A DNA stretch of 25,873 nucleotides from a virus (IMGVR_UViG_3300043395_001372:1-25873), one strand, 5' to 3'. Positions 57 through 18,325 are shown, counted from the first letter of the stretch. Translations and numbers: made by a program. Notes: generated from the sequence alone by a model not told the origin.

Positions 57-317
57 TTCTTTTCTTTATATATAATAGTAATTATCTCTGAGGGAAAGTC
101 CCCCCCTCCCCCCATAGATTTTTTATTCGTATCTAATGGTGGAAGTGAAGATAATATCTCTAGTGCAAAGTCCCCACAAACCCTATAATTACTATACCAT
201 AAAGAATTTGTGATGTAAGCCACTAATGTCCGTTTTATACCGTTATGATATACTTTAATTGCTTGTCCTGTGATCCGTCTCTCATACCCACCGATCATGG
301 GGCAAGTCTATTTTTCA

Positions 318-326
318 TGGTATAAT
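318..326 (+). promoter_or_regulatory. extended -10 promoter (TGGTATAAT)
   Basis: Perfect TGnTATAAT, 9 nt before ATG 336; no Shine-Dalgarno (SD). Confidence 0.65.
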
Positions 327-335
327 CTTTCTATT

Positions 336-734
336 ATGGCAAACCTCTGTGCACCCGAAATTTTTGGCGCTGATCCAGTTACAATTCAATGGCGTGTTGT
401 TCGTGGTGACACAGGAACATTAAGAGTAGAATTTAAAGAAGCAGATGAAGTAGAACCTTATAATACAGAAGGCTGGGTTTATCGTTGTACAGCATACGAT
501 CAATCTGGAAATGTATTAGATGCTTTAGATTGTGAACCAGGAGAAGGATTTGTAGATATTACTGCTTATGCTTCAGTTACTAAGAACTGGGGAAGTGGTT
601 ATAAGGCTACCGTCGCAGAATTGCCTTTTGATGTGCAGGTAATTATTCCAGAAGAAATAGAAGACATTGTTTGGACACCAGTTGTTGGAACAATTTATGT
701 TATCGGTGATGTAACACCAGGAGGTACTTTATAA
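336..734 (+). CDS. virion structural protein, BppU-N/Ig-like adaptor (paralog 1 of 3)
   Basis: Start moved from 270 to ATG 336 because the promoter lies inside the longer ORF. The WRVVRGDTGTLRV and FDVQV...WT...GTIYVIGDVT motifs are shared with 2342..2740 and 7343..7732. Confidence 0.7.
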   Translation: MANLCAPEIFGADPVTIQWRVVRGDTGTLRVEFKEADEVEPYNTEGWVYRCTAYDQSGNVLDALDCEPGEGFVDITAYASVTKNWGSGYKATVAELPFDVQVIIPEEIEDIVWTPVVGTIYVIGDVTPGGTL

Positions 735-3323: not shown

Positions 3324-4373
3324 GTGGCAGCAGAAGACATTGGTGGCATATGGAATGTAAAGCAACCAGGATATGAAGATAAGGCTGATATACAAGCAGC
3401 ACTTAAGTTATTCCTGTATGGAGACTATAATTTTGATACTACAGCCCCGATTGGTGATCAAAAAACAGATTTAGCAAACAATGATGGGTTAGCCAGACAT
3501 TTACAAGATTTAAGAGAAGATGTAGATAGAGTAGATAATCGAGGAATTGGTTCTGATTATTTAACTATAAATCAAATACAAGCAATTTCATCTCCAACTG
3601 ACGGATATATTGTTATGGCATCAGACTCTACTGGCGCAGCAGTTCAGTCAACTTATGGAATTGCTCTTTATCAAAATGAAGAACCAACAACTAACCTAAC
3701 AAACGGAATAGTCTGGATAGATAAAGACTCTGATAGTAAAGATATATATGTCTATGATTCTTCTGATTTTGTTAAAGTAGGAACATATACTGATGCCAAA
3801 GGTGATTTAATTGTTGGTTTTGATCAAGGAATTACTCAAATTTTACCAGTAGGAAGCACTGGAAAAGTTTTAACTGCAGATTCGAGTGCACCTTTAGGAA
3901 TTTCTTGGACTGATTTAGACTATGAAACAAATAAAAATATATCTTCTATGTATTTTGGAAATTACTCAGATACAAGTTTAACTGGAATACAATTAAATGG
4001 TGTTAATGAAAATGGAACATTAAAGACAATTGATTCTGATGATATTGAGTTAGCAATAACAAAGAGTGCATCGTCAACAAAAACAAAAATTACATTTACT
4101 GGTGTCTGTAGACCAACAACAGATACAAATATTGAAGCATTTATTGGATTACAGAGAAAGATTAATTCTGGATCATACTCAACTATAAATGTTGGGTTAA
4201 TATCTAAAGAATTAGTAAGTTCGCATTTTGAATGGCTAGACACTCATAATGCTACAACTGGAGATATTATTACTTATAGATTAATTAATATTACTCCCTC
4301 TGGATACCTTGCAAATGTCATAACACAAAGATTTGGCGAAACATCAGATACTTTTATTGTGGAGGAAATCTAA
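3324..4373 (+). CDS. putative tail/fibre protein
   Basis: 349 aa. AKGDLIVG...LPVGSTGKVLTADSSAPLGISW and EPTTNLTNGIVWID are motifs typical of phage fibre shafts. Confidence 0.65.
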   Translation: MAAEDIGGIWNVKQPGYEDKADIQAALKLFLYGDYNFDTTAPIGDQKTDLANNDGLARHLQDLREDVDRVDNRGIGSDYLTINQIQAISSPTDGYIVMASDSTGAAVQSTYGIALYQNEEPTTNLTNGIVWIDKDSDSKDIYVYDSSDFVKVGTYTDAKGDLIVGFDQGITQILPVGSTGKVLTADSSAPLGISWTDLDYETNKNISSMYFGNYSDTSLTGIQLNGVNENGTLKTIDSDDIELAITKSASSTKTKITFTGVCRPTTDTNIEAFIGLQRKINSGSYSTINVGLISKELVSSHFEWLDTHNATTGDIITYRLINITPSGYLANVITQRFGETSDTFIVEEI

Positions 4374-4374
4374 T

Positions 4375-5007
4375 ATGGCAAATCTAGCGTCGCAAAGCAA
4401 AGTAGCATATATGTATGATGAAGGAAGTAATTTATGGTACGCTATTGCTGGTGTTGCAAATACCAATGTTCCATATACATGGACACAGGCTCATACTTTT
4501 GGTTCTACAGTAACAGTTAATGATGTTATTAAGGCAAAAGGTGGAGTTAACATATTTCAAAATCCAAATGCTAGAGATGCTGCAATAACTTCACCAACAG
4601 AAGGTACCGTATGTTTTGTAGAGCAAACTAATAGTGGTACAGATATAAGTCAGGTTCAATATTATAATGGAACCAAATGGGTTGGGTTATTGGATAGTGT
4701 TGTTTTTAATGAAAAAACTGCTAACTATACACTTGTTTTAGGAGATGCTGGAAAAACAGTAACAATTAATTCTGGCTCAGATACAACAATTACAGTTCCT
4801 TTAAATTCATCTGTGCCATTTGAAATTGGTCAAAGAATAGACATAATTAGAGTTGGTTCAGGCAATGTTACTTTTAATGGAGCAACAGTAGCAGTTATAA
4901 TTAATAGTAAAAATTCAAATAAAAAAATTGCTGCAAGGTATTCTGGTGCAACCTTAATTAAGTATGCTACCGATACTTGGGTCTTACTTGGCGATTTGAC
5001 GGCGTAG
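4375..5007 (+). CDS. short fibre protein with C-terminal 'TDTWVLxGDL' domain (cassette 1, first gene)
   Basis: Start revised to ATG 4375 (SD GGAGG at 4361). The C-terminal ~100 aa align by eye with the C-terminus of 10626..12944. Confidence 0.7.
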   Translation: MANLASQSKVAYMYDEGSNLWYAIAGVANTNVPYTWTQAHTFGSTVTVNDVIKAKGGVNIFQNPNARDAAITSPTEGTVCFVEQTNSGTDISQVQYYNGTKWVGLLDSVVFNEKTANYTLVLGDAGKTVTINSGSDTTITVPLNSSVPFEIGQRIDIIRVGSGNVTFNGATVAVIINSKNSNKKIAARYSGATLIKYATDTWVLLGDLTA

Positions 5008-5014
5008 GTGTCCA

Positions 5015-6094
5015 ATGCTAAATTCATTATGGACATTTTTAGCAAAAGGTATGGGATCAGTACCCAACCTACTTGGATTAACAAAAAATCAAGCAAGACA
5101 ATCATTGCAGAATGCAGGATTTAATTATGGAACAGAAATAGAAGAGGTTCAAGATAATGAATCTTTAACTGGATTAGTTAAATCACAAGATGTTGCAGCA
5201 AATACATTATTAGATTACGAAAGTACTGTTAACTATAAACTTCACTCATTTTCTTTTTCTCCATTTGGTGTTTTTGGTTTTTCTCCATTTGGTGTTTTTG
5301 GTTTTTCTCCATTTGCTGTTTTTGGTTTTTCTCCATTTGGAGTATTTTCTTTTACACCAGGACCGATAGAGTGTCCTCAGCCAGGAGCATGGTCAGAGTG
5401 GTCTGCTTGGGACATAGGCCCATGGGGTCCATGGGGTGAATGTGAAGCAGATGGATATAGAAGACAACATAGAACATATACAAGAACAAGAACAAGAACA
5501 ATATATACATTAGTATCAGGAAACTGTATTGCTGGAACTGAAACTCAAACAGAAACTATGGACGATGTAAATGTTGAGGTTTGTGGCACTCCAGCCTTCA
5601 ACTTTATGCCAACATTTGCTGTCTTTAGTTTTACTCCAGGATTTAGCGTATTTACATTTACACCAGAACCATCATTTAACTTTATGCCAACGTTCGGAGT
5701 GTTTAGTTTTACTCCAGCATTTGCAGTCTTTAGTTTTACACCAGAACCATCATTTAACTTTATGCCAACATTTGCCGTCTTTAGTTTTACTCCACAGGCA
5801 TTTTCTGTGTTTTCATTTACTCCAGCATTTAGCGTATTTAGTTTTACACCAGAGCCATCGTTTAACTTTATGCCAACATTTGCCGTCTTTAGTTTTACAC
5901 CAGCATTTAGTGTCTTTAGTTTTACACCAGCATTTAGTGTCTTTAGTTTTACACCAGCATTTAGTGTCTTTAGTTTTACACCAGCATTTGGTGTCTTTAG
6001 TTTTACTCCAGCATTTGGTGTCTTTAGTTTTACACCAGAGGCCACTTTTAGTTTTACCCCAGAGGCTAGTTTTAACTTTGCACCCTGGGGCTAA
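5015..6094 (+). CDS. PASTA-like + thrombospondin-1-like protein with Phe-rich FxVFxF(S/T)P repeats, ending FNFAPWG
   Basis: VPNLLGLT...A...L..AGF...G.V.SQ...V.Y fits the PASTA pattern. WSEWSAW...WGPWGEC...RTRTRT with 4 Cys fits a TSR-like pattern. 17 octapeptide units. Confidence 0.75.
   Translation: MLNSLWTFLAKGMGSVPNLLGLTKNQARQSLQNAGFNYGTEIEEVQDNESLTGLVKSQDVAANTLLDYESTVNYKLHSFSFSPFGVFGFSPFGVFGFSPFAVFGFSPFGVFSFTPGPIECPQPGAWSEWSAWDIGPWGPWGECEADGYRRQHRTYTRTRTRTIYTLVSGNCIAGTETQTETMDDVNVEVCGTPAFNFMPTFAVFSFTPGFSVFTFTPEPSFNFMPTFGVFSFTPAFAVFSFTPEPSFNFMPTFAVFSFTPQAFSVFSFTPAFSVFSFTPEPSFNFMPTFAVFSFTPAFSVFSFTPAFSVFSFTPAFSVFSFTPAFGVFSFTPAFGVFSFTPEATFSFTPEASFNFAPWG
5249..5359 (+). repeat. 24-bp tandem coding repeat, 4 x F(G/A)VF(G/S)F(S/T)P
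   Basis: Unit tttggtgtttttggtttttctcca, read directly from the sequence. Confidence 0.95.
5597..6091 (+). repeat. composite coding repeat: 13 x FxVFxFTP plus 4 x FNFMPT with EPS linkers
   Basis: 27-bp units (gcatttagtgtctttagttttacacca) and higher-order blocks, read directly. Confidence 0.95.
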
Positions 6095-10625: not shown

Positions 10626-12944
10626 ATGGCAACAAGAATGCAACAACGCAGAGGAACCGCAGCACAATGGACTGCAGCGAATCCAACTTTAGCAGCAGGA
10701 GAAATCGGATTTGAAACCGATACCAACCAGTTCAAAATTGGAAACGGGTCTTCGGCATGGTCTGCCCTCTCCTATTTTAAAAATTTAGATGGCCTTGATG
10801 GCGTAGGTGGAATAGTAACCCTAAACGCACAAGGTATGATCGATATAGCATTAATCCCACAAGGCGTGGCATTAGATGCAGAGTTAACTCAATATATTGA
10901 AGATCATAATAATGAGACAACAGGTGTTCATGGAATTTCTAATACAGCAAATCTTGTATATCAAACAGACCTAACAACTACGGTAAATGACGCAATTTCA
11001 TTAGAAGTAAATAATAGAAACGATGCAATTTCTGATGCTATTGGACAAGAAGTAACAAACCGTAACACTGCAATTGATGATGCTATTGCATTAGAAGTAA
11101 CAGAGCGCAATACTGCAATTAATGATGCTATTGCCCTAGAAGTCTCTGCTAGAGATGTGGCTATTGATGATGCTATTGCTCAAGAAGTAACAGATAGAAA
11201 TAATGCAATAGGAAATGAGATTGCAGCAGAAGTTTCTGATAGAAATCAGGCTATTGATGATGCTATTGCTCAAGAAGTAACAGATAGAAATAATGCAATA
11301 GGCACAGAAATTGGTACACATAATTCTGACACAACTGGTGTTCATGGAATTACAGATACAGCAGCACTTGCAACAAAAACATATGCAGACAATGCAGCAT
11401 CAGCAGTAGGATCTTCTGCTTCAGCAAATCTAACTGCTCATACTACAGCAACAACAAGCGTACATGGTATTGCTGATACAGCAGCACTTGCAACAAAAAC
11501 ATATGCAGATGGAGCAGTTTCGACAGCAGTTGCAGCATTGACAAAGTCTTCCGTAGGACTTGGAAATGTTGATAATACATCTGATGCAAATAAGCCAATA
11601 TCAACTGCAACACAGTCTGCACTTGATCTAAAGGCACCGCTTGCTTCTCCAACATTTACTGGCACAGTATCTGGAGTTACAAAAGCAATGGTTGGACTTG
11701 GTAATGCAGACAATACTTCCGATGCTAATAAGCCAGTTTCAACTGCTACACAAACAGCACTTGATCTTAAGGCTCCTCTTGCAGGACCTACCTTTACAGG
11801 AACTGTTACTCTTCCATCAACAACATCAATTGGAAATGTTTCAGCAACTGAACTTGGATATGTTGACGGTGTAACCTCAGCAATTCAAACACAATTAGAT
11901 TCTAAGTTAGCACTTGCTGGCGGAACAATGACAGGAGCCTTGACACTTTCGGGCGCACCATCAGCAGATTTACATGCAGCAACTAAGGCATATGTAGATA
12001 ATGTAACTGCAGGAATTAACTTCCATCAGCCAGTTCGTGTTGCTACAACAGCAAATATTACATTAAGCGGAACACAAACAATTGATGGAGTTTCTTTATC
12101 TGTTGGTGATCGTGTTCTTGTTAAGGATCAAACAACTCAAACACAAAATGGTATTTATGTAGTTGCTTCAGGTTCATGGACAAGAGCAACAGATGCAGAC
12201 AATACTCCAGACGGAGAGTTAAAGGGTGGAGATTTCACTCTAGTACTTGAAGGTACTGTTAACTCAGGATACGGATACGTTTGCTCTAACACATCAGCAA
12301 TTACAATTGGAACAACAAATGTTACCTACGCAGCATTTAATGCTGCTAAAGCAATAACAGCAGGTTCAGGTCTTACAGAATCAACACCAGGAACAATTGA
12401 AATTGCAACTGGTGGAGTTACATCAGCAATGATTGCAGATGGAACTATCGTAAATGCAGATATTAATGCGTCTGCAGCAATTGATCAATCCAAGATTTCT
12501 GGACTTTCAGCATCATTTGCTGCTAAAGCAGATCTTGCATCACCAACCTTCACTGGAACCGTAACTCTTCCAGCAGCAGGTATCGTATTTTCAGACGGCA
12601 CACAGTCTAAAGAAGGCGTTCCTTCAAGAACGCCAATTATTCAAAAGTCCGCAGCATATACACTATCTGCACTTTCTGAAAGAGACTCTATGATTGAAGT
12701 TTCACACACTGGCGGAACTGCTGTAGATATTACAATTCCAGCAAACTCCTCAGTTGCATATCCAGTAGGAACATCTATTGATGTTCTTCGTACAAATACT
12801 GGTGGAGTAAGAATTGTCGGAGCAGCAGGAGTAACAGTAAATGGTACACCTGGTGCATATTTAAGAGCACAATGGTCTGCAGCAACCTTATTTAAGAGAG
12901 CAACAGATACTTGGGTCTTGATAGGCGACCTCGCTACGGCGTAA
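10626..12944 (+). CDS. long fibre protein with Mtd-N-like N-terminus and C-terminal 'TDTWVLxGDL' domain (cassette 2, first gene)
   Basis: RRGTAAQWTAANPTLAAGEIGFETDT..FKIGNG is the major-tropism-determinant N-terminal pattern. Also 15-aa repeats, 3 x H...TTxVHGI, 2 x VGLGNxDNTSDANKP and GDRVLVKDQT...NGIYV. Confidence 0.85.
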   Translation: MATRMQQRRGTAAQWTAANPTLAAGEIGFETDTNQFKIGNGSSAWSALSYFKNLDGLDGVGGIVTLNAQGMIDIALIPQGVALDAELTQYIEDHNNETTGVHGISNTANLVYQTDLTTTVNDAISLEVNNRNDAISDAIGQEVTNRNTAIDDAIALEVTERNTAINDAIALEVSARDVAIDDAIAQEVTDRNNAIGNEIAAEVSDRNQAIDDAIAQEVTDRNNAIGTEIGTHNSDTTGVHGITDTAALATKTYADNAASAVGSSASANLTAHTTATTSVHGIADTAALATKTYADGAVSTAVAALTKSSVGLGNVDNTSDANKPISTATQSALDLKAPLASPTFTGTVSGVTKAMVGLGNADNTSDANKPVSTATQTALDLKAPLAGPTFTGTVTLPSTTSIGNVSATELGYVDGVTSAIQTQLDSKLALAGGTMTGALTLSGAPSADLHAATKAYVDNVTAGINFHQPVRVATTANITLSGTQTIDGVSLSVGDRVLVKDQTTQTQNGIYVVASGSWTRATDADNTPDGELKGGDFTLVLEGTVNSGYGYVCSNTSAITIGTTNVTYAAFNAAKAITAGSGLTESTPGTIEIATGGVTSAMIADGTIVNADINASAAIDQSKISGLSASFAAKADLASPTFTGTVTLPAAGIVFSDGTQSKEGVPSRTPIIQKSAAYTLSALSERDSMIEVSHTGGTAVDITIPANSSVAYPVGTSIDVLRTNTGGVRIVGAAGVTVNGTPGAYLRAQWSAATLFKRATDTWVLIGDLATA
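10980..11315 (+). repeat. 45-bp (15-aa) tandem coding repeat, about 7.5 copies of AIxDAIAxEVTxRNx
   Basis: Read from the translation; includes an exact 54-bp duplication at 11159-11212 and 11249-11302. Confidence 0.9.
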
Positions 12945-12975: not shown

Positions 12976-14184
12976 ATGGCAGGTAAACTTGGAAGAAAAG
13001 CAGGTCAGCAATCATGGCCTAATGATGTAACAATTACCACTGCAACAGACGTTGGTACGAATCGTCCATATGCTGCCTCAGCAGCATCAACAGAGGCAGG
13101 AGCCTCTGGTGTTGGAGGATCTGTAAGTCTTGCATGGTCTTTACCAGCAGGATCAGCAGAAGCATCATCTTATACCATTACTACTACTCCTTCTACTTAT
13201 TCAAAAACGGTATCTGGAACAAGCACTACATTTGAAGGACTTGCATCTAATACAGCATATACATTTACAATTAAAGCAAATAATAGTGTAGGCTCTTCTG
13301 CAGGAACAACATCTTCTTCAGTAACTGCTACTACAGTTCCTCAAGCACCAACACTTTCATCTGCAACAGATGTTGGAACAAATAGACCCTATAACAATGG
13401 ATCTGTTTCTGTTGCATTTACTGCCAACGCTACTGGTGGAAAATCAATAACAAGTTATACAGTATCTGGTGGAGGATATTCTGCTTCTGGAGCAACTTCC
13501 CCATTGGCTCCAACAGGATACGCTACTGGTGCAACTCCAACGTTTACAGTCACTGCTACAAATGGAAATGGTACTTCATTAGCATCTTCTGCTTCTAGTG
13601 CTGTTACAGTAACAACTGTTCCAGATACACCAGCAGCACCAACAGTATCATCTCCAACGCCTTCTGCTGGAGTTAACGTTGCTGGAACTACAACAGACAG
13701 CGTATCTTGGTCTGCACCAGCAAATGGTGGAAAGGCTATTAGTCAATATACCTGGACATCTTCGGACTCAAAGTCTGGAACAACAGCAGGAACATCGGTT
13801 TCTGTAAATCAAGAAGGTGGAACTGCTCAAACTTATCAGGTTCGTGCAGAAAATGCTAATGGTGCTGGAAATTATTCTTCTGCATCTTCTAGCGTTACAA
13901 CATTCCAATTTACTCCATTCTCGGTCTTCGGATTCTCACCATTCGGTGTATTTTCCTTCGCACCATTCTCGGTCTTCGGCTTCTCACCATTCGGTGTATT
14001 TTCCTTCGCACCATTCTCGGTCTTCGGCTTCTCACCATTCGGTGTGTTTGGCTTCTCACCATTCGGTGTCTTCGGCTTCTCACCATTCGGTGTCTTCGGC
14101 TTCTCACCATTCGGTGTGTTTGGCTTCTCACCATTCAGCGTGTTCGGCTTCTCACCAGCGTTTAACTTTGCTCCTTGGGGCTAA
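12976..14184 (+). CDS. fibronectin type III (x3) protein with Phe-rich octapeptide repeats, ending FNFAPWG
   Basis: VSLAWSLP...YTI...GLASNTAYTFTIKANNSVGSS plus two further FN3-like units; Ser/Thr-rich; SD AAGGAG. Confidence 0.85.
   Translation: MAGKLGRKAGQQSWPNDVTITTATDVGTNRPYAASAASTEAGASGVGGSVSLAWSLPAGSAEASSYTITTTPSTYSKTVSGTSTTFEGLASNTAYTFTIKANNSVGSSAGTTSSSVTATTVPQAPTLSSATDVGTNRPYNNGSVSVAFTANATGGKSITSYTVSGGGYSASGATSPLAPTGYATGATPTFTVTATNGNGTSLASSASSAVTVTTVPDTPAAPTVSSPTPSAGVNVAGTTTDSVSWSAPANGGKAISQYTWTSSDSKSGTTAGTSVSVNQEGGTAQTYQVRAENANGAGNYSSASSSVTTFQFTPFSVFGFSPFGVFSFAPFSVFGFSPFGVFSFAPFSVFGFSPFGVFGFSPFGVFGFSPFGVFGFSPFGVFGFSPFSVFGFSPAFNFAPWG
13918..14157 (+). repeat. 24-bp tandem coding repeat, 10 x F(G/S)VF(G/S)F(S/A)P
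   Basis: Unit ttcggtgtcttcggcttctcacca; 240 bp, exactly 10 units. Confidence 0.95.
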
Positions 14185-14188
14185 AACA

Positions 14189-14197
14189 TGGTATACT
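14189..14197 (+). promoter_or_regulatory. extended -10 promoter (TGGTATACT)
   Basis: Lies 4 nt after the stop at 14184, upstream of the oxygenase pair. Confidence 0.55.
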
Positions 14198-14226
14198 GTA
14201 GTAATACAGTAGAAGGGTAAAATAAA

Positions 14227-14886
14227 ATGCAAAATCAAGGAATGAGTCCAACTGCAAAATTTGGAACTAAGCCACATAAATTTTTTGAAAGACATTTAAA
14301 TAATGATCTTAATAAATTGTCTAATTTTTTATCTGATAGATATGAAAAAATAGAAAGAGCCGAAATAGATGGTGTAACTCCTTTGGGTTCTGCAGGACAC
14401 GAATATTGGGTAAAATCTGGAAGTACTTCCACAGTAAAATGGAGAGAGTACAATGTTTTTCAATTTCATAGTGAAGAAATATATAATGTTTTTAAAGGTG
14501 TTAAAGATGCAACAAAAGAGGCATGTGAATATTATGATATTGACTTTGATGCACAAAACTTTATGGTTCAGGGATGGTTTAATATAACTCATAAGGGTAA
14601 AGGCAAATTAGATTGGCATGATCATGGTCAACCAGGAGCACCAAATTTTCACGGGTATTATAGTGTTAAAGCAGAGCCTTCTACAACACATTATCATGTG
14701 TATGGAGAAGTGGTAGATCATCATAATATTGATAATAAATTAATTGTTTCTGAAATGGGTCATCAGCATGCTATGGCAGATTGGGATTGGGAAGGTCCAA
14801 GAATAACAATCGCTTACGACATTATTCCATTGGAATATTTAATTAGGGCAAATGCTGCCGAACAGCATTGGATCCCATTGTTATGA
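14227..14886 (+). CDS. putative Fe(II)/2OG-dependent oxygenase (DSBH fold, HxH type), paralog A
   Basis: GWFN...WHDH...FHGYYSV...GHQH...PRITIAYD fits the W.N / HxH / GYY / distal His / R-x-(S/T) layout. Confidence 0.7.
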   Translation: MQNQGMSPTAKFGTKPHKFFERHLNNDLNKLSNFLSDRYEKIERAEIDGVTPLGSAGHEYWVKSGSTSTVKWREYNVFQFHSEEIYNVFKGVKDATKEACEYYDIDFDAQNFMVQGWFNITHKGKGKLDWHDHGQPGAPNFHGYYSVKAEPSTTHYHVYGEVVDHHNIDNKLIVSEMGHQHAMADWDWEGPRITIAYDIIPLEYLIRANAAEQHWIPLL

Positions 14887-15560
14887 TAGCAATGAAGCCA
14901 CCACATAAATTTTTTGAATCATTTATTGATAATGATTTAGATTTTTTATTTGACTATTTAGTAGAAAAACAATCGGAATTACTTTCTGGTTCTTTAGCAC
15001 CTATTCCAGAAGATGTTTTATCAAAGTATAACAAAGATAATGGACCAACAACACAATTAGGAAACTATTATAATATTTTTAATTTTGAAAATAATGAAAT
15101 TAAAAATTTAAAAATATCTTTATCTAATTTAACTAAAGAAGCATGTGAGTATTATAATTTTAATTATGAAGAACTGGACTTTATGATTCACGGCTGGTAT
15201 AATTTAGATTATAAAACTTATGGAAGTTGGGACGAAAAAAAACAAAAAATAATGGCTGTAAATGGTGGAGTTAGTCCAATAAATAATGCCCATTCATTTC
15301 ATGATCATGCAGAGGGCACAGGAGCACCAATCTTTCATGGTTATTATTGTGTTAACGCTGAACCATCTATAACATTTTATAAAATAAATAAACAAGTGTT
15401 ATTTGAAAATCACAATAAAAACAATAGAGCAATAGTATCAGAAACAGGACACCCACACGGTAGAGATGATTGGTATGAGGACAAGCCAAGAATTACAATT
15501 GCTTATGATATTGCTCCAAAAGATTCTCACGTAGTAACAGAGTTATGGACAAAATTATGA
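14883..15560 (+). CDS. putative Fe(II)/2OG-dependent oxygenase, paralog B
   Basis: Start revised to ATG 14883 (ATGA overlap). Shares PHKFFE, EACEYY, GW.N, HDH, GAP.FHGYY.V.AEPS, VSE.GH.H and PRITIAYDI.P with paralog A. Confidence 0.7.
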   Translation: MIAMKPPHKFFESFIDNDLDFLFDYLVEKQSELLSGSLAPIPEDVLSKYNKDNGPTTQLGNYYNIFNFENNEIKNLKISLSNLTKEACEYYNFNYEELDFMIHGWYNLDYKTYGSWDEKKQKIMAVNGGVSPINNAHSFHDHAEGTGAPIFHGYYCVNAEPSITFYKINKQVLFENHNKNNRAIVSETGHPHGRDDWYEDKPRITIAYDIAPKDSHVVTELWTKL

Positions 15561-15685
15561 AAAAGATAATTTGTTTTTTTAAAGGACATAACATGCAAAC
15601 ATCTGAATGCCCAGTTACTGGTGCAAAACTAAATATATGTCTAAGATGTTTTCCACAAAATCATTCAAGAGTAACTTTTAAATAA
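15557..15685 (+). CDS. 42-aa Cys/His-rich protein, putative Zn-binding
   Basis: Not in the ORF track. MKKIICFFKGHNMQTSECPVTGAKLNICLRCFPQNHSRVTFK; ATGA overlap with the previous stop. Confidence 0.7.
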   Translation: MKKIICFFKGHNMQTSECPVTGAKLNICLRCFPQNHSRVTFK

Positions 15686-15773: not shown

Positions 15774-17807
15774 GTGTCAGATTTTTTTAGTTTTCGCTTG
15801 TCAGAAGATTTTATAAATGAGTATAAAACAAAAGAACCACCATTTGGATTTACAGATGCTGGTGGTAATTCACTAGGAGAGATTACGTTTATTCGTACCT
15901 ACTCTCGAATGAAGGAAGATGGAACTAAAGAAAGATGGTATGAGGTTTGTCGTCGAGTAATTGAGGGCATGTATTCAGCCCAAAAGAATCACGCCAAAGA
16001 AAACAGACTCCCTTGGAATGACTATAAAGCACAGGCTTCTGCAAAAGAAGCATATCAGCGTTTGTTTGAGTTAAAGTGGACACCACCAGGGCGAGGCCTA
16101 TGGTCTTTTGGCACGGCACTTACAATGGAAAAGAAAAACTCAGCAGCATTACAAAATTGTGCTATGGTATCTACAAAAGATATAGACAGAAATGATCCAG
16201 GAACATTATTTGCTTGGGTTATGGATGCGCTTATGATGGGTGTAGGTGTAGGATTTGATACTGTCGGGGCAGAAAAAAAGTTACCTATTTATGACCCTAC
16301 AGAACCACCACAGGTTTATGAAATCCCAGATACTCGTGAGGGCTGGGTAGAATCTGTTAGATTATTAATTAACTCATTTTTAAAACCTAATATGTACATA
16401 CAAGAATTTAACTATGACCTCATTCGTCCTTTAGGAGCACCTATTAAAGGGTTTGGAGGCACAGCAAGCGGTCCTGCACCACTTATACAGTTACACAAGC
16501 AGATAAGGTCTGTAATCGGCGGTAGGGCAGGAGAAACACTTGACTCAAGAGCAATAGTAGATATCGTTAACCTCATTGGCACCTGCGTGGTATCAGGAAA
16601 TGTTAGACGATCTGCAACATTGGCTCTAGGTAATGCTCAAGATGAAGACTTTATGAATCTTAAGAATTCTGAGGTTTTCCCAGAAAGAAATTCATTTGAT
16701 CCAGAAAATCCAGGTTGGGCCTGGATGTCAAACAATTCTGTTTCTGCGACGGTAGGCACAAAGTACGAAGAATATGTAGACCTTATTGCTAATAACGGAG
16801 AACCTGGTTTTATATGGTTAGATGTGGCAAGAAATTACGGGCGTTTAAAAGATCCTGCTGACGGAAAAGATTATAGAGTCATGGGCTTTAATCCTTGTGC
16901 AGAACAACCTTTGGAGTCATATGAACTATGCACCTTGGTTGAAGTACATTTAAACCGTCATGAGTCTAAAGAAGATTTTTTGCGTACATTAAAGTTTGCA
17001 TATTTGTATGGCAAGACGGTAACGCTGATACCAACACACTGGCAACAGACAAATGGAATTATGCAGCGTAATCGTCGCATTGGAACATCACTAACTGGTA
17101 TTGCTTCATTTTCAGACAAATTTGGTTTGCCTGTTGTGCGTGAATGGATGGACGAAGGCTATGAAACTATACGTAGATATGATCATAAATATTCTGAATG
17201 GTTATGCGTTCGTGATTCCATTAGAGTCACAACTGTTAAACCATCAGGGTCTGTATCAATTCTTTCTGGCGCAACGCCTGGAGTTCACTGGGCGCCTGGT
17301 GGAAACTATTTCTTGAGAGCAATTCGTTTTGGGAATACCGACCCAATGATTCATTTGTTCAAGGCTGCTGGATATAAAATGGAGGCTGACCTTGTATCTG
17401 CGAATACAACTGTCGTTTATTTCCCAGTACATTCTGGTCATTCAAGGTCTGAAAAAGATGTAACGTTATTTGAGAAGATTGCGCTTGCTGCTACTGCTCA
17501 GAAATATTGGTCTGATAACGGCGTGTCTGTAACGCTTTCATTTGACAAAGAAACTGAAACAAAGCACATTGCGCCAGCGCTTCATATGTACGAAGGACAG
17601 TTAAAGGCGGTATCATTTTTACCTATGGGTAATACTGTGTATCCACAACAACCATATACAGAGATTACTGAAGAGGAGTATAATAGTTATATAGGACAAA
17701 TAAAGAAGATAGACTGGTCCGCTATTTACGATGGAGCAGAAAATTTGGAGGCACAGGGAGAAATGTACTGCACAACTGATGCTTGTGAGATAAGGATTAA
17801 ATCATGA
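15774..17807 (+). CDS. nrdJ: class II adenosylcobalamin-dependent ribonucleotide reductase (monomeric RTPR type)
   Basis: PPGRGLW, LQNC, GNVRRSA, FNPCAEQPL (thiyl Cys), LCTLVE, TTVKPSGSVS and a C-terminal CTTDAC redox pair; GTG start with SD AAGGAG. Confidence 0.95.
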   Translation: MSDFFSFRLSEDFINEYKTKEPPFGFTDAGGNSLGEITFIRTYSRMKEDGTKERWYEVCRRVIEGMYSAQKNHAKENRLPWNDYKAQASAKEAYQRLFELKWTPPGRGLWSFGTALTMEKKNSAALQNCAMVSTKDIDRNDPGTLFAWVMDALMMGVGVGFDTVGAEKKLPIYDPTEPPQVYEIPDTREGWVESVRLLINSFLKPNMYIQEFNYDLIRPLGAPIKGFGGTASGPAPLIQLHKQIRSVIGGRAGETLDSRAIVDIVNLIGTCVVSGNVRRSATLALGNAQDEDFMNLKNSEVFPERNSFDPENPGWAWMSNNSVSATVGTKYEEYVDLIANNGEPGFIWLDVARNYGRLKDPADGKDYRVMGFNPCAEQPLESYELCTLVEVHLNRHESKEDFLRTLKFAYLYGKTVTLIPTHWQQTNGIMQRNRRIGTSLTGIASFSDKFGLPVVREWMDEGYETIRRYDHKYSEWLCVRDSIRVTTVKPSGSVSILSGATPGVHWAPGGNYFLRAIRFGNTDPMIHLFKAAGYKMEADLVSANTTVVYFPVHSGHSRSEKDVTLFEKIALAATAQKYWSDNGVSVTLSFDKETETKHIAPALHMYEGQLKAVSFLPMGNTVYPQQPYTEITEEEYNSYIGQIKKIDWSAIYDGAENLEAQGEMYCTTDACEIRIKS

Positions 17808-18325
17808 TAGATAAAATAAAGTATGTAGAAGAATTTATGCCAAGAGATATTGCTTTAAGGATATCTGATTATGCAAAAAAATATACAGATGATTTTCCAG
17901 AATATGGGAATAATGAACAAGAATTTACTGTTCATACATACAACGAAATAAAGGCTAGAGATCCAGAACTGTTGGATATAATGCAAGAGTATGCAATTAA
18001 AGTTTATAATTTTGTAAAAGAAAATTACGATGGCCCATTTCAAGATTTCCTTCATGAAAAAACACATATAGCAAAATTTGTTGCTGGAAAAGGAATGCAC
18101 GAACATTTTGATTCTAACAGACCAAATGACATAGCAACCTTAGTTTACTTAAATGATGACTATGTCGGAGGAGATATTTATTTTCCAAAATATAACATAT
18201 CCTATAAGCCAAAGCCAGGAGATCTTCTTTGTTTTCCAGACAATCCAGACTATGTTCATGGAGTAAAGGTTATAGATTTAGGAACAAGATATACTGCTCC
18301 TAGATGGTTTACACGCATCGTATGA
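17804..18325 (+). CDS. prolyl-4-hydroxylase-like 2OG-Fe(II) oxygenase
   Basis: HFD...LVYLNDDYVGGDIYF...PKPGDLLCFP...HGV...GTRY (HxD...H...R). Confidence 0.88.
   Translation: MIDKIKYVEEFMPRDIALRISDYAKKYTDDFPEYGNNEQEFTVHTYNEIKARDPELLDIMQEYAIKVYNFVKENYDGPFQDFLHEKTHIAKFVAGKGMHEHFDSNRPNDIATLVYLNDDYVGGDIYFPKYNISYKPKPGDLLCFPDNPDYVHGVKVIDLGTRYTAPRWFTRIV

Follow-up and report, generated by a model that had tools for sequence, protein, structure and literature searches.

We analysed an entire virus record of 25,873 nucleotides from an uncultured freshwater phage (IMGVR_UViG_3300043395_001372:1-25873; this whole stretch is called the window), focusing on a fibronectin type III (FN3) protein that ends in a Phe-rich repeat array and on two paralogous genes behind it, OxA and OxB, predicted to encode Fe(II)/2-oxoglutarate (2OG) oxygenases. 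Among relatives of this locus, array class went with enzyme class: the oxygenase family (Ox) was found in the downstream cassette of 52 of the 53 FxFxP-array clusters and of none of the 39 PPFF-array clusters. This match is real, and the independent events behind it are few; the pairing of repeat tags with oxygenase classes in freshwater phages is genuine, conserved and apparently undescribed. Our tentative explanation is that the Phe-rich array is a surface tag hydroxylated in place by OxA and OxB, for which it is the best candidate substrate. The features concerned are as follows.

12976..14184, + strand: FN3-domain protein, 402 amino acids (aa), with the Phe-rich array at its end (Pfam fn3, E 3.2e-10; weak PHROG minor tail protein match, E 3.6e-5)
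13903..14181, + strand: Phe-rich array, 93 aa, consisting of an FQFTP starter, 10 FxVFxFxP units and an AFNFAPWG end
14189..14197, + strand: extended -10-like promoter motif of putative function, one of 10 in the window
14227..14886, + strand: OxA, 219 aa, predicted Fe(II)/2OG oxygenase (H131, H133, H181, R192)
14883..15560, + strand: OxB, 225 aa, ancient OxA paralogue judging by identity, motifs and its separate clade (H140, H142, H192, R203)
15557..15685, + strand: Cys/His microprotein, 42 aa, probable Zn ribbon, DUF1660-like
5015..6094, + strand: PASTA-domain protein (Pfam PASTA, E 4e-10) with 17 related units and the same FNFAPWG end as the FN3 protein

The 10 units of the FN3 protein are contiguous (positions 13918–14157), abut without spacers and follow ~310 aa of FN3 domains; AFNFAPWG then ends the protein. 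The 93-aa tail contains 34 Phe and zero charged residues. In the PASTA protein, a block of four units is separated by a Cys/Trp spacer from a block of 13. The 25 window proteins held 27 units, compared with at most one in 1000 shuffles, and the FN3 protein alone yielded at most one unit in 10,000 shuffles. FSP units are present in both arrays. Phe is encoded mostly by TTC in one array (26 of 30 codons) and almost only by TTT in the other (50 of 51), and Ser is drawn from both codon families, so the motif is maintained at the protein level. Gene conversion as the source of the likeness between the two arrays was ruled out by this codon use.

The FN3 stop codon lies 42 bp from the OxA ATG, and ATGA overlaps join OxA to OxB and OxB to the microprotein gene. 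OxA and OxB are 37% identical over 209 aa. All of this layout, including the unit counts, the shared end, the coupled paralogues and the 42-aa Cys/His open reading frame (ORF), was exactly as described in the initial annotation. That annotation also cautioned that the oxygenases have a promoter-like element of their own, which could make their adjacency to the array incidental. The element is present, but the caution is uninformative, as TGRTATAMT is a recurrent motif in the window, with 10 copies against 1.9 expected, most of them immediately 5' of genes. A sigma-70 scan of the window gave nine sites against 10.5 expected, and no terminator was found. At window positions 270–340, a listed 154-aa ORF probably begins later, at the ATG after the promoter-like motif at 318–326. 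Contigs from a freshwater metatranscriptome were identical to the window over the FN3 gene and across the FN3–OxA junction, covering 29 of 30 bins, although these could derive from DNA.

The microprotein occurred in 36 of the 53 Ox cassettes. Its residues C6, H11, C18, C28 and C31 were conserved in 16 relatives, two of which matched DUF1660 (PF07874; E 1e-4 and 1e-3), one scoring 22.8 against a cut-off of 21.4 and the other just below it. The window's own copy did not match PF07874.

Array class and enzyme class among relatives

Loci were collected via OxA (72), via FN3-array alignment (80), via the PPFF pattern (125, of which 80 had flanks) and via FN3-only alignment (80). We kept 229 array genes, which formed 106 clusters; three were dropped for too little downstream DNA, and array genes followed by another FN3 gene as well as one frameshifted gene (L332) were left out. 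Besides the PPFF clusters, those with FGA arrays (0 of 8) and Tyr-type arrays (0 of 3) lacked Ox in the downstream cassette. When searches not started from the enzyme were considered, Ox was found in 46 of 47 FxFxP clusters versus 0 of 49 others, and in the FN3-only search in 12 of 12 versus 0 of 25. Behind PPFF arrays we instead found series of prolyl-hydroxylase-type and DUF6065 genes (38 of 39), and behind FGA and Tyr arrays a single DUF6065-like gene. Ox was the first gene 3' of the array gene in 37 of 53 clusters, with one to four paralogues behind one array. An F-x-F-x-P start was seen in 64 of 65 non-PPFF arrays versus 0 of 41 PPFF arrays, and the Ox family also accompanied Pro-less FYHG arrays (L062, L486). 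Unit length among relatives ranged from three to nine residues. The initial annotation had proposed co-occurrence and synteny as a check on its idea of a modification system; the synteny proved conserved, with array class and enzyme class matching as stated above.

As just seven of the 39 PPFF cassettes were visible to their end, whole PPFF records were also searched. No close Ox family member was found in 82 such records (two of them complete), and there were two weak distant matches; 42 of the 45 short pattern loci among these records were confirmed as in-frame PPFF. The PPFF pattern itself occurred in ~1100 stored viral stretches, and at PPFF loci L179–L381 up to about nine tandem prolyl-hydroxylase-type genes followed the FN3-PPFF genes.

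A Hint-like tail lay behind the array in 35 of 54 FxFxP clusters, with weak Pfam Hint_2 matches below the cut-off. A leading Cys and a terminal HN were present in 22 of 55 Hint-like tails, and many lacked catalytic residues. Such tails were seen in relatives only: neither window protein has a Hint domain, both ending in FNFAPWG. Directly 3' of array-Hint genes, of FxFxP and PPFF class alike, we observed degenerate Ox homologues without the His triad adjoining a GNAT-like gene (L035:7250-7810 and L383).

The independence of the match was assessed on three trees. On a tree of the class II ribonucleotide reductase (RNR; 51 rows), array class changed 12 times compared with 11.5 after shuffling; being scattered in this way, it does not mark clades. 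On this tree, the window's close relatives carry FGA arrays and DUF6065 genes. On the FN3 tree (101 rows), nine of nine independent pairs were concordant (p-value about 0.004). Because array and cassette can swap as a block between the RNR and FN3 anchors, the Hint domain, which lies inside the block, was used as a third anchor. On the Hint tree (56 rows), PPFF and FxFxP arrays interleave, and four of four pairs were concordant on well-supported branches (p-value 0.125) and all six on the best tree.

Predicted fold and family of the oxygenases

The AlphaFold2 model of OxA (predicted local distance difference test 92) has a double-stranded beta-helix core with N-terminal helices. Its best fold match was 2rg4 (Z 16.4, root-mean-square deviation 3.0, 172 residues aligned), followed at Z 13.2 by a Pseudomonas prolyl hydroxylase (4iw3) and SnoK. 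In Foldseek, 3bvc (E 7e-7) and 2rg4 ranked first, and in a structure atlas PF13759 clusters were found at 0.96 for OxA. Nearly all of the top 50 fold matches were Fe/2OG-type oxygenases by title.

Residues H131, H133, H181 and R192 were kept in 146–147 of 147 distinct sequences. The metal site H-x-H...H replaces the canonical H-x-D/E...H triad of Fe(II)/2OG oxygenases, and the invariant R192, within R-I-T, provides a basic residue on the last strand whose position suggests a role with 2OG. HxH variants have been noted for other members of the Fe(II)/2OG superfamily (PMC2938197). The oxygenase fold and HxH site that had first been read from the sequence are supported by the predicted model, the 2rg4 and 3bvc matches and the conserved His residues.

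OxA and OxB are therefore predicted 2OG-Fe(II) oxygenases with a three-His site, PF13759-like but not formal PF13759 members. Sequence searches of Pfam, PHROGs, NCBIfam and the PDB gave no useful match for either protein. The PF13759 and TIGR02466 models (Pfam, NCBIfam) matched neither of them nor any of 53 aligned members, and distant relatives scored 17–24 bits against PF13759, where the cut-off is 27. PF13640 (prolyl 4-hydroxylase type) likewise did not match OxA or OxB; it matched a separate gene at 17804-18325, which is coupled to the RNR gene and lies outside the array–oxygenase finding. The family comprised 1026 proteins at 90% clustering and, at 50% clustering, 38 representatives with E <=1e-30 and 414 with E <=0.001; OxA and OxB fall in two old clades. 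One Ox fragment joined to an array and a Hint domain (P0166) was set aside as a probable assembly chimera and not taken as evidence of fusion. PF13759 has been recorded in viruses without an assigned function (PMC10598087).

Proposed hydroxylation of the arrays and alternative explanations

We propose that the FN3 protein, likely a fibre-tip accessory protein of the virion judging by gene position, would display its Phe-rich repeat on the particle, and that OxA and OxB would hydroxylate this repeat in place. The matching repeat of the PASTA protein would probably be hydroxylated too, and the new hydroxyls could conceivably receive sugar or carbamoyl groups afterwards. The presence of peptide prolyl hydroxylases such as 4iw3 among the nearest characterised folds supports this proposal. 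The initial annotation had named Pro or Phe as the target. Pro is now the weaker candidate and we somewhat favour Phe, because the family follows Pro-less arrays and sits in genomes with almost Pro-less arrays, because the Pro-rich PPFF arrays are accompanied by genes of the conventional prolyl-hydroxylase type, and because Phe is common to the arrays with an F-x-F-x-P start and the Pro-less FYHG arrays. For an enzyme of this kind, hydroxylating Phe within a protein would be an unusual reaction. The suggestion of one oxygenase per array type did not hold, given the varying number of paralogues behind one array, the FSP units in both window arrays and the two Ox paralogues in genomes with a single Phe array.

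The Ox pair is a piece of a larger tailoring set, which includes DUF6065 (dUTPase-like) genes, an N-acetylglucosamine-transferase-like gene, two prolyl-hydroxylase-type genes and a carbamoyltransferase gene. Related phages split this set differently while keeping one piece beside the array gene. Six whole records were compared in this respect. In three FGA genomes (G001–G003), Ox lies ~60 kb from the array gene, in a module that also contains DUF6065, a gene of 220 aa without a known function, a pair of prolyl-hydroxylase-type genes and a PF11397-like transferase gene; one DUF6065-like gene is kept beside the array gene. In two FxFxP genomes (G006, G009), the far-off module lacks Ox, which is beside the array gene. 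The sixth record, a PPFF genome (G042), has neither Ox nor the transferase. In addition, a complete Tyr-type genome found via FN3 (G011) carries the module, Ox included, elsewhere in the genome. At two further loci (L142, L035), the module is directly 3' of the array gene. Adjacency is thus not required, as FGA and Tyr genomes carry Ox away from the array gene, but across whole genomes the family accompanies arrays with an F-x-F-x-P start and the Pro-less FYHG arrays. In G006 (L394:13680-15857), an unknown 235-aa gene and two DUF6065-like genes with a similar C-terminal motif stay adjacent across genomes and possibly encode a heterotrimer of the dUTPase-like fold.

A number of observations weigh against hydroxylation of the arrays. 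A single FxFxP cluster, L127, lacks Ox both in its cassette and in its 33%-complete record, and a degenerate distant homologue sits inside one PPFF cassette. All four complete FGA/Tyr genomes examined (three of them found via the enzyme) keep Ox away from the array gene, and the window's OxA clusters with unlinked copies from FGA genomes (Shimodaira–Hasegawa-like approximate likelihood ratio test 88). The contrasts on the RNR and FN3 trees overcount, block transfer being possible, and on the Hint tree, with its p-value of 0.125, the FGA class is near a single clade. In a search with the distant subfamily, 74 of 80 loci had a distant member but lacked a Phe array within 5 kb; the other six, of the close subfamily, again lie behind array or Hint genes. 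Homologues of 53–54% identity occur in nonribosomal peptide synthetase (NRPS)-type clusters of two Bacteroidetes-labelled bins, in genomes without the FxFxP pattern; the remaining two of four matches in cellular collections are phage contigs in bins. In these clusters (L176:4221-12415 and L177:3192-11503), the Ox homologue is accompanied by genes for a CmlA-like beta-hydroxylase and histidine phosphatases, by GT9-like genes and by an adenylation domain with a pocket that reads as Thr-type by the specificity code. The initial annotation had named homologues without repeat proteins, if common, as evidence against its idea; in part this applies, as close homologues occur without arrays in these two bacterial clusters and unlinked in FGA/Tyr phages. 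The open-licence literature searched describes no substrate for any family member. Finally, the prolyl hydroxylase of chlorovirus PBCV-1 acts on peptides in vitro, yet hydroxyproline was not detected in virions (PMC7019647).

Several of these points are also consistent with another substrate. We consider it only slightly less probable that the slot flanked by fibre genes and RNR is a hot spot of exchange for a tailoring set with a different target, be it a small metabolite, a host peptide or other virion proteins such as the collagen-like fibres. The array would then be an unmodified adhesion or self-association tag and the class match a product of block inheritance. This would account for the unlinked Ox copies in FGA/Tyr genomes, the NRPS-cluster homologues and the distant members in array-free oxygenase clusters, and it fits the sulfotransferase, GNAT, glycosyltransferase, epimerase and ferredoxin genes that the slot also holds, the Trp halogenase of the close relative G006, and the small metabolites proposed as products of Syn9-type clusters (PMC2938197). 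It does not explain why Ox was never seen with PPFF arrays in cassette or record despite the interleaving of PPFF and FxFxP on the Hint tree, why the Ox genes of G006 and G009 have moved out of the distant module to the array gene, or why a second array 8 kb away has the same motif in different codons. A role unrelated to the virion protein, as auxiliary metabolic or nucleic-acid enzymes (2OG sink, base repair, nucleotide modification), seems improbable to us. The Ox genes do adjoin RNR, AlkB/TET folds do appear low in the OxA fold list (Z 9.8–10.9), and modulation of 2OG has been proposed for cyanophage oxygenases (PMC3037559), but the array-class match would be left unexplained, four loci without RNR (L047, L128, L153, L157) retain the order of array, Ox and microprotein genes, and in the fold list nucleic-acid enzymes come far behind 2rg4 and the peptide hydroxylases.

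The initial annotation had also considered processing of the arrays into peptides, in the layout of a ribosomally synthesised and post-translationally modified peptide (RiPP). The array would then be a precursor with multiple cores, hydroxylated and afterwards cut into free octapeptides, which we consider very unlikely. Near-identical units do stand beside tailoring enzymes, and the Hint-like tails of relatives could free an array-bearing protein, but the window's lineage lacks such a tail, and after cleavage by Hint the array would still be attached to the FN3 protein. Moreover, the units abut without spacers behind FN3 domains instead of a leader, their length drifts among relatives, and the window's cassette (only OxA, OxB and the microprotein) encodes no protease, recognition element or exporter.

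Beyond hydroxylation of the window's own arrays, a broader scheme is imaginable, although we regard it as rather unlikely: freshwater actinophages might use a tag-and-writer code in which interchangeable FxFxP, FGA, FYHG and PPFF arrays on FN3 or PASTA carriers each have their own oxygenase class, the three-His family hydroxylating Phe in a protein and thereby preparing it for the addition of sugar, sulfate or carbamoyl groups, which would modulate host attachment or conceal the virion. Our searches of open-licence papers, supplements excluded, turned up no description of these arrays; family members are listed in the supplement of PMC2938197, which could be relevant to how new the system is.

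Genomic context and comparison with known systems

The window is a virion gene block with collagen-like and Mtd_N fibre genes and genes for a lytic transglycosylase, portal, head protease and class II RNR (Pfam, PHROG). The genes flanking the arrays and cassette are as follows.

4333..5007, + strand: fibre-type protein directly 5' of the PASTA-array gene (PHROG minor tail and virion structural matches)
10626..12944, + strand: Mtd_N fibre protein directly 5' of the FN3 gene (Pfam Mtd_N), whose C-terminal domain is also found in the gene before the PASTA protein
15774..17807, + strand: class II RNR, the usual right edge of the variable cassette (Pfam; synteny)

The fibre C-terminal domain shared by the genes 5' of the two array genes is 41% identical over 99 aa (E 7e-18), and as both array genes follow it, this suggests that each array protein partners a fibre tip. 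Between the unit blocks of the PASTA protein (5351-5590) is a Cys/Trp/Arg segment with no Pfam match, absent from the relative L003, which presumably resembles a thrombospondin type 1 repeat. In FGA genomes, the protein in the PASTA slot (G001:C1:96390-97235, G003:C1:18707-19738) has Pro/Thr/Ala/Val repeats and a Cys tail and is followed by genes for small Cys proteins and other oxygenase- or glycosyltransferase-like proteins, forming a second array-plus-enzyme slot. In an unrelated phage (L468:1122-7672), a Gly-rich fibre-type gene precedes about nine oxygenase-like genes, including a distant Ox; an order of fibre then oxygenase may hold more generally among phages of aquatic habitats.

The window's close relatives are phage records of 100–125 kb, and the group as a whole has genomes of roughly 110–125 kb. 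One of them, G006, has an OxA 96% identical to the window's and encodes WhiB, and the phage group therefore probably infects Actinobacteria. Neither OxA nor the FN3 protein matched any of 50,697 deposited phage records, so these searches revealed no cultured relative.

The structures 2rg4 and 3bvc of the PF13759 (2OG-FeII_Oxy_5) oxygenases are the known proteins most like OxA in fold, and the atlas neighbours and distant relatives point to the same family. They differ from OxA and OxB in sequence (11–12% identity), in that OxA and OxB fall below the Pfam and NCBIfam models, and both are titled uncharacterized; 2rg4 is a PF13759/TIGR02466 member with an HxH...H site. Multi-core RiPP clusters of the cyanobactin and borosin type also have repeated units beside tailoring enzymes, but the window lacks their leader, spacer motifs, protease and exporter, and its carrier is an FN3 protein in a virion block. 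Bacterial intein-like and Hedgehog Hint domains resemble the tail after the array in relatives and are absent from both window proteins.

Aquatic phage clusters with tandem unrelated dioxygenases, halogenases and a dUTPase-fold gene have been described by Iyer et al. (2010; PMC2938197), who also report bacterial operons that pair hydroxylases and sulfotransferases with tail-collar or collagen-like proteins and predict repeat or fibre proteins as substrates in these operons. Unlike the window, the Syn9-type clusters have, as described there, no Phe array, no FN3 or Hint carrier and no matching of array and enzyme, and the phage clusters are read there as metabolite pathways. The PBCV-1 prolyl 4-hydroxylase (5c5t), a virus-encoded 2OG oxygenase of the same fold class as OxA (Z 11.5), hydroxylates Pro-containing peptides (PMC7019647); it comes from a eukaryotic virus, belongs to a different oxygenase family and is closer to the prolyl-4-hydroxylase-type genes behind PPFF arrays. 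Aquatic phages encode many 2OG-Fe(II) oxygenases without a known substrate, whereas here a candidate substrate is encoded beside the enzyme, is short enough for synthesis and has natural negative controls in the PPFF arrays. If the arrays are indeed hydroxylated, a PF13759-like family with an unusual three-His site would have its first assigned function, and bacteriophages would be chemically tailoring their own attachment proteins.

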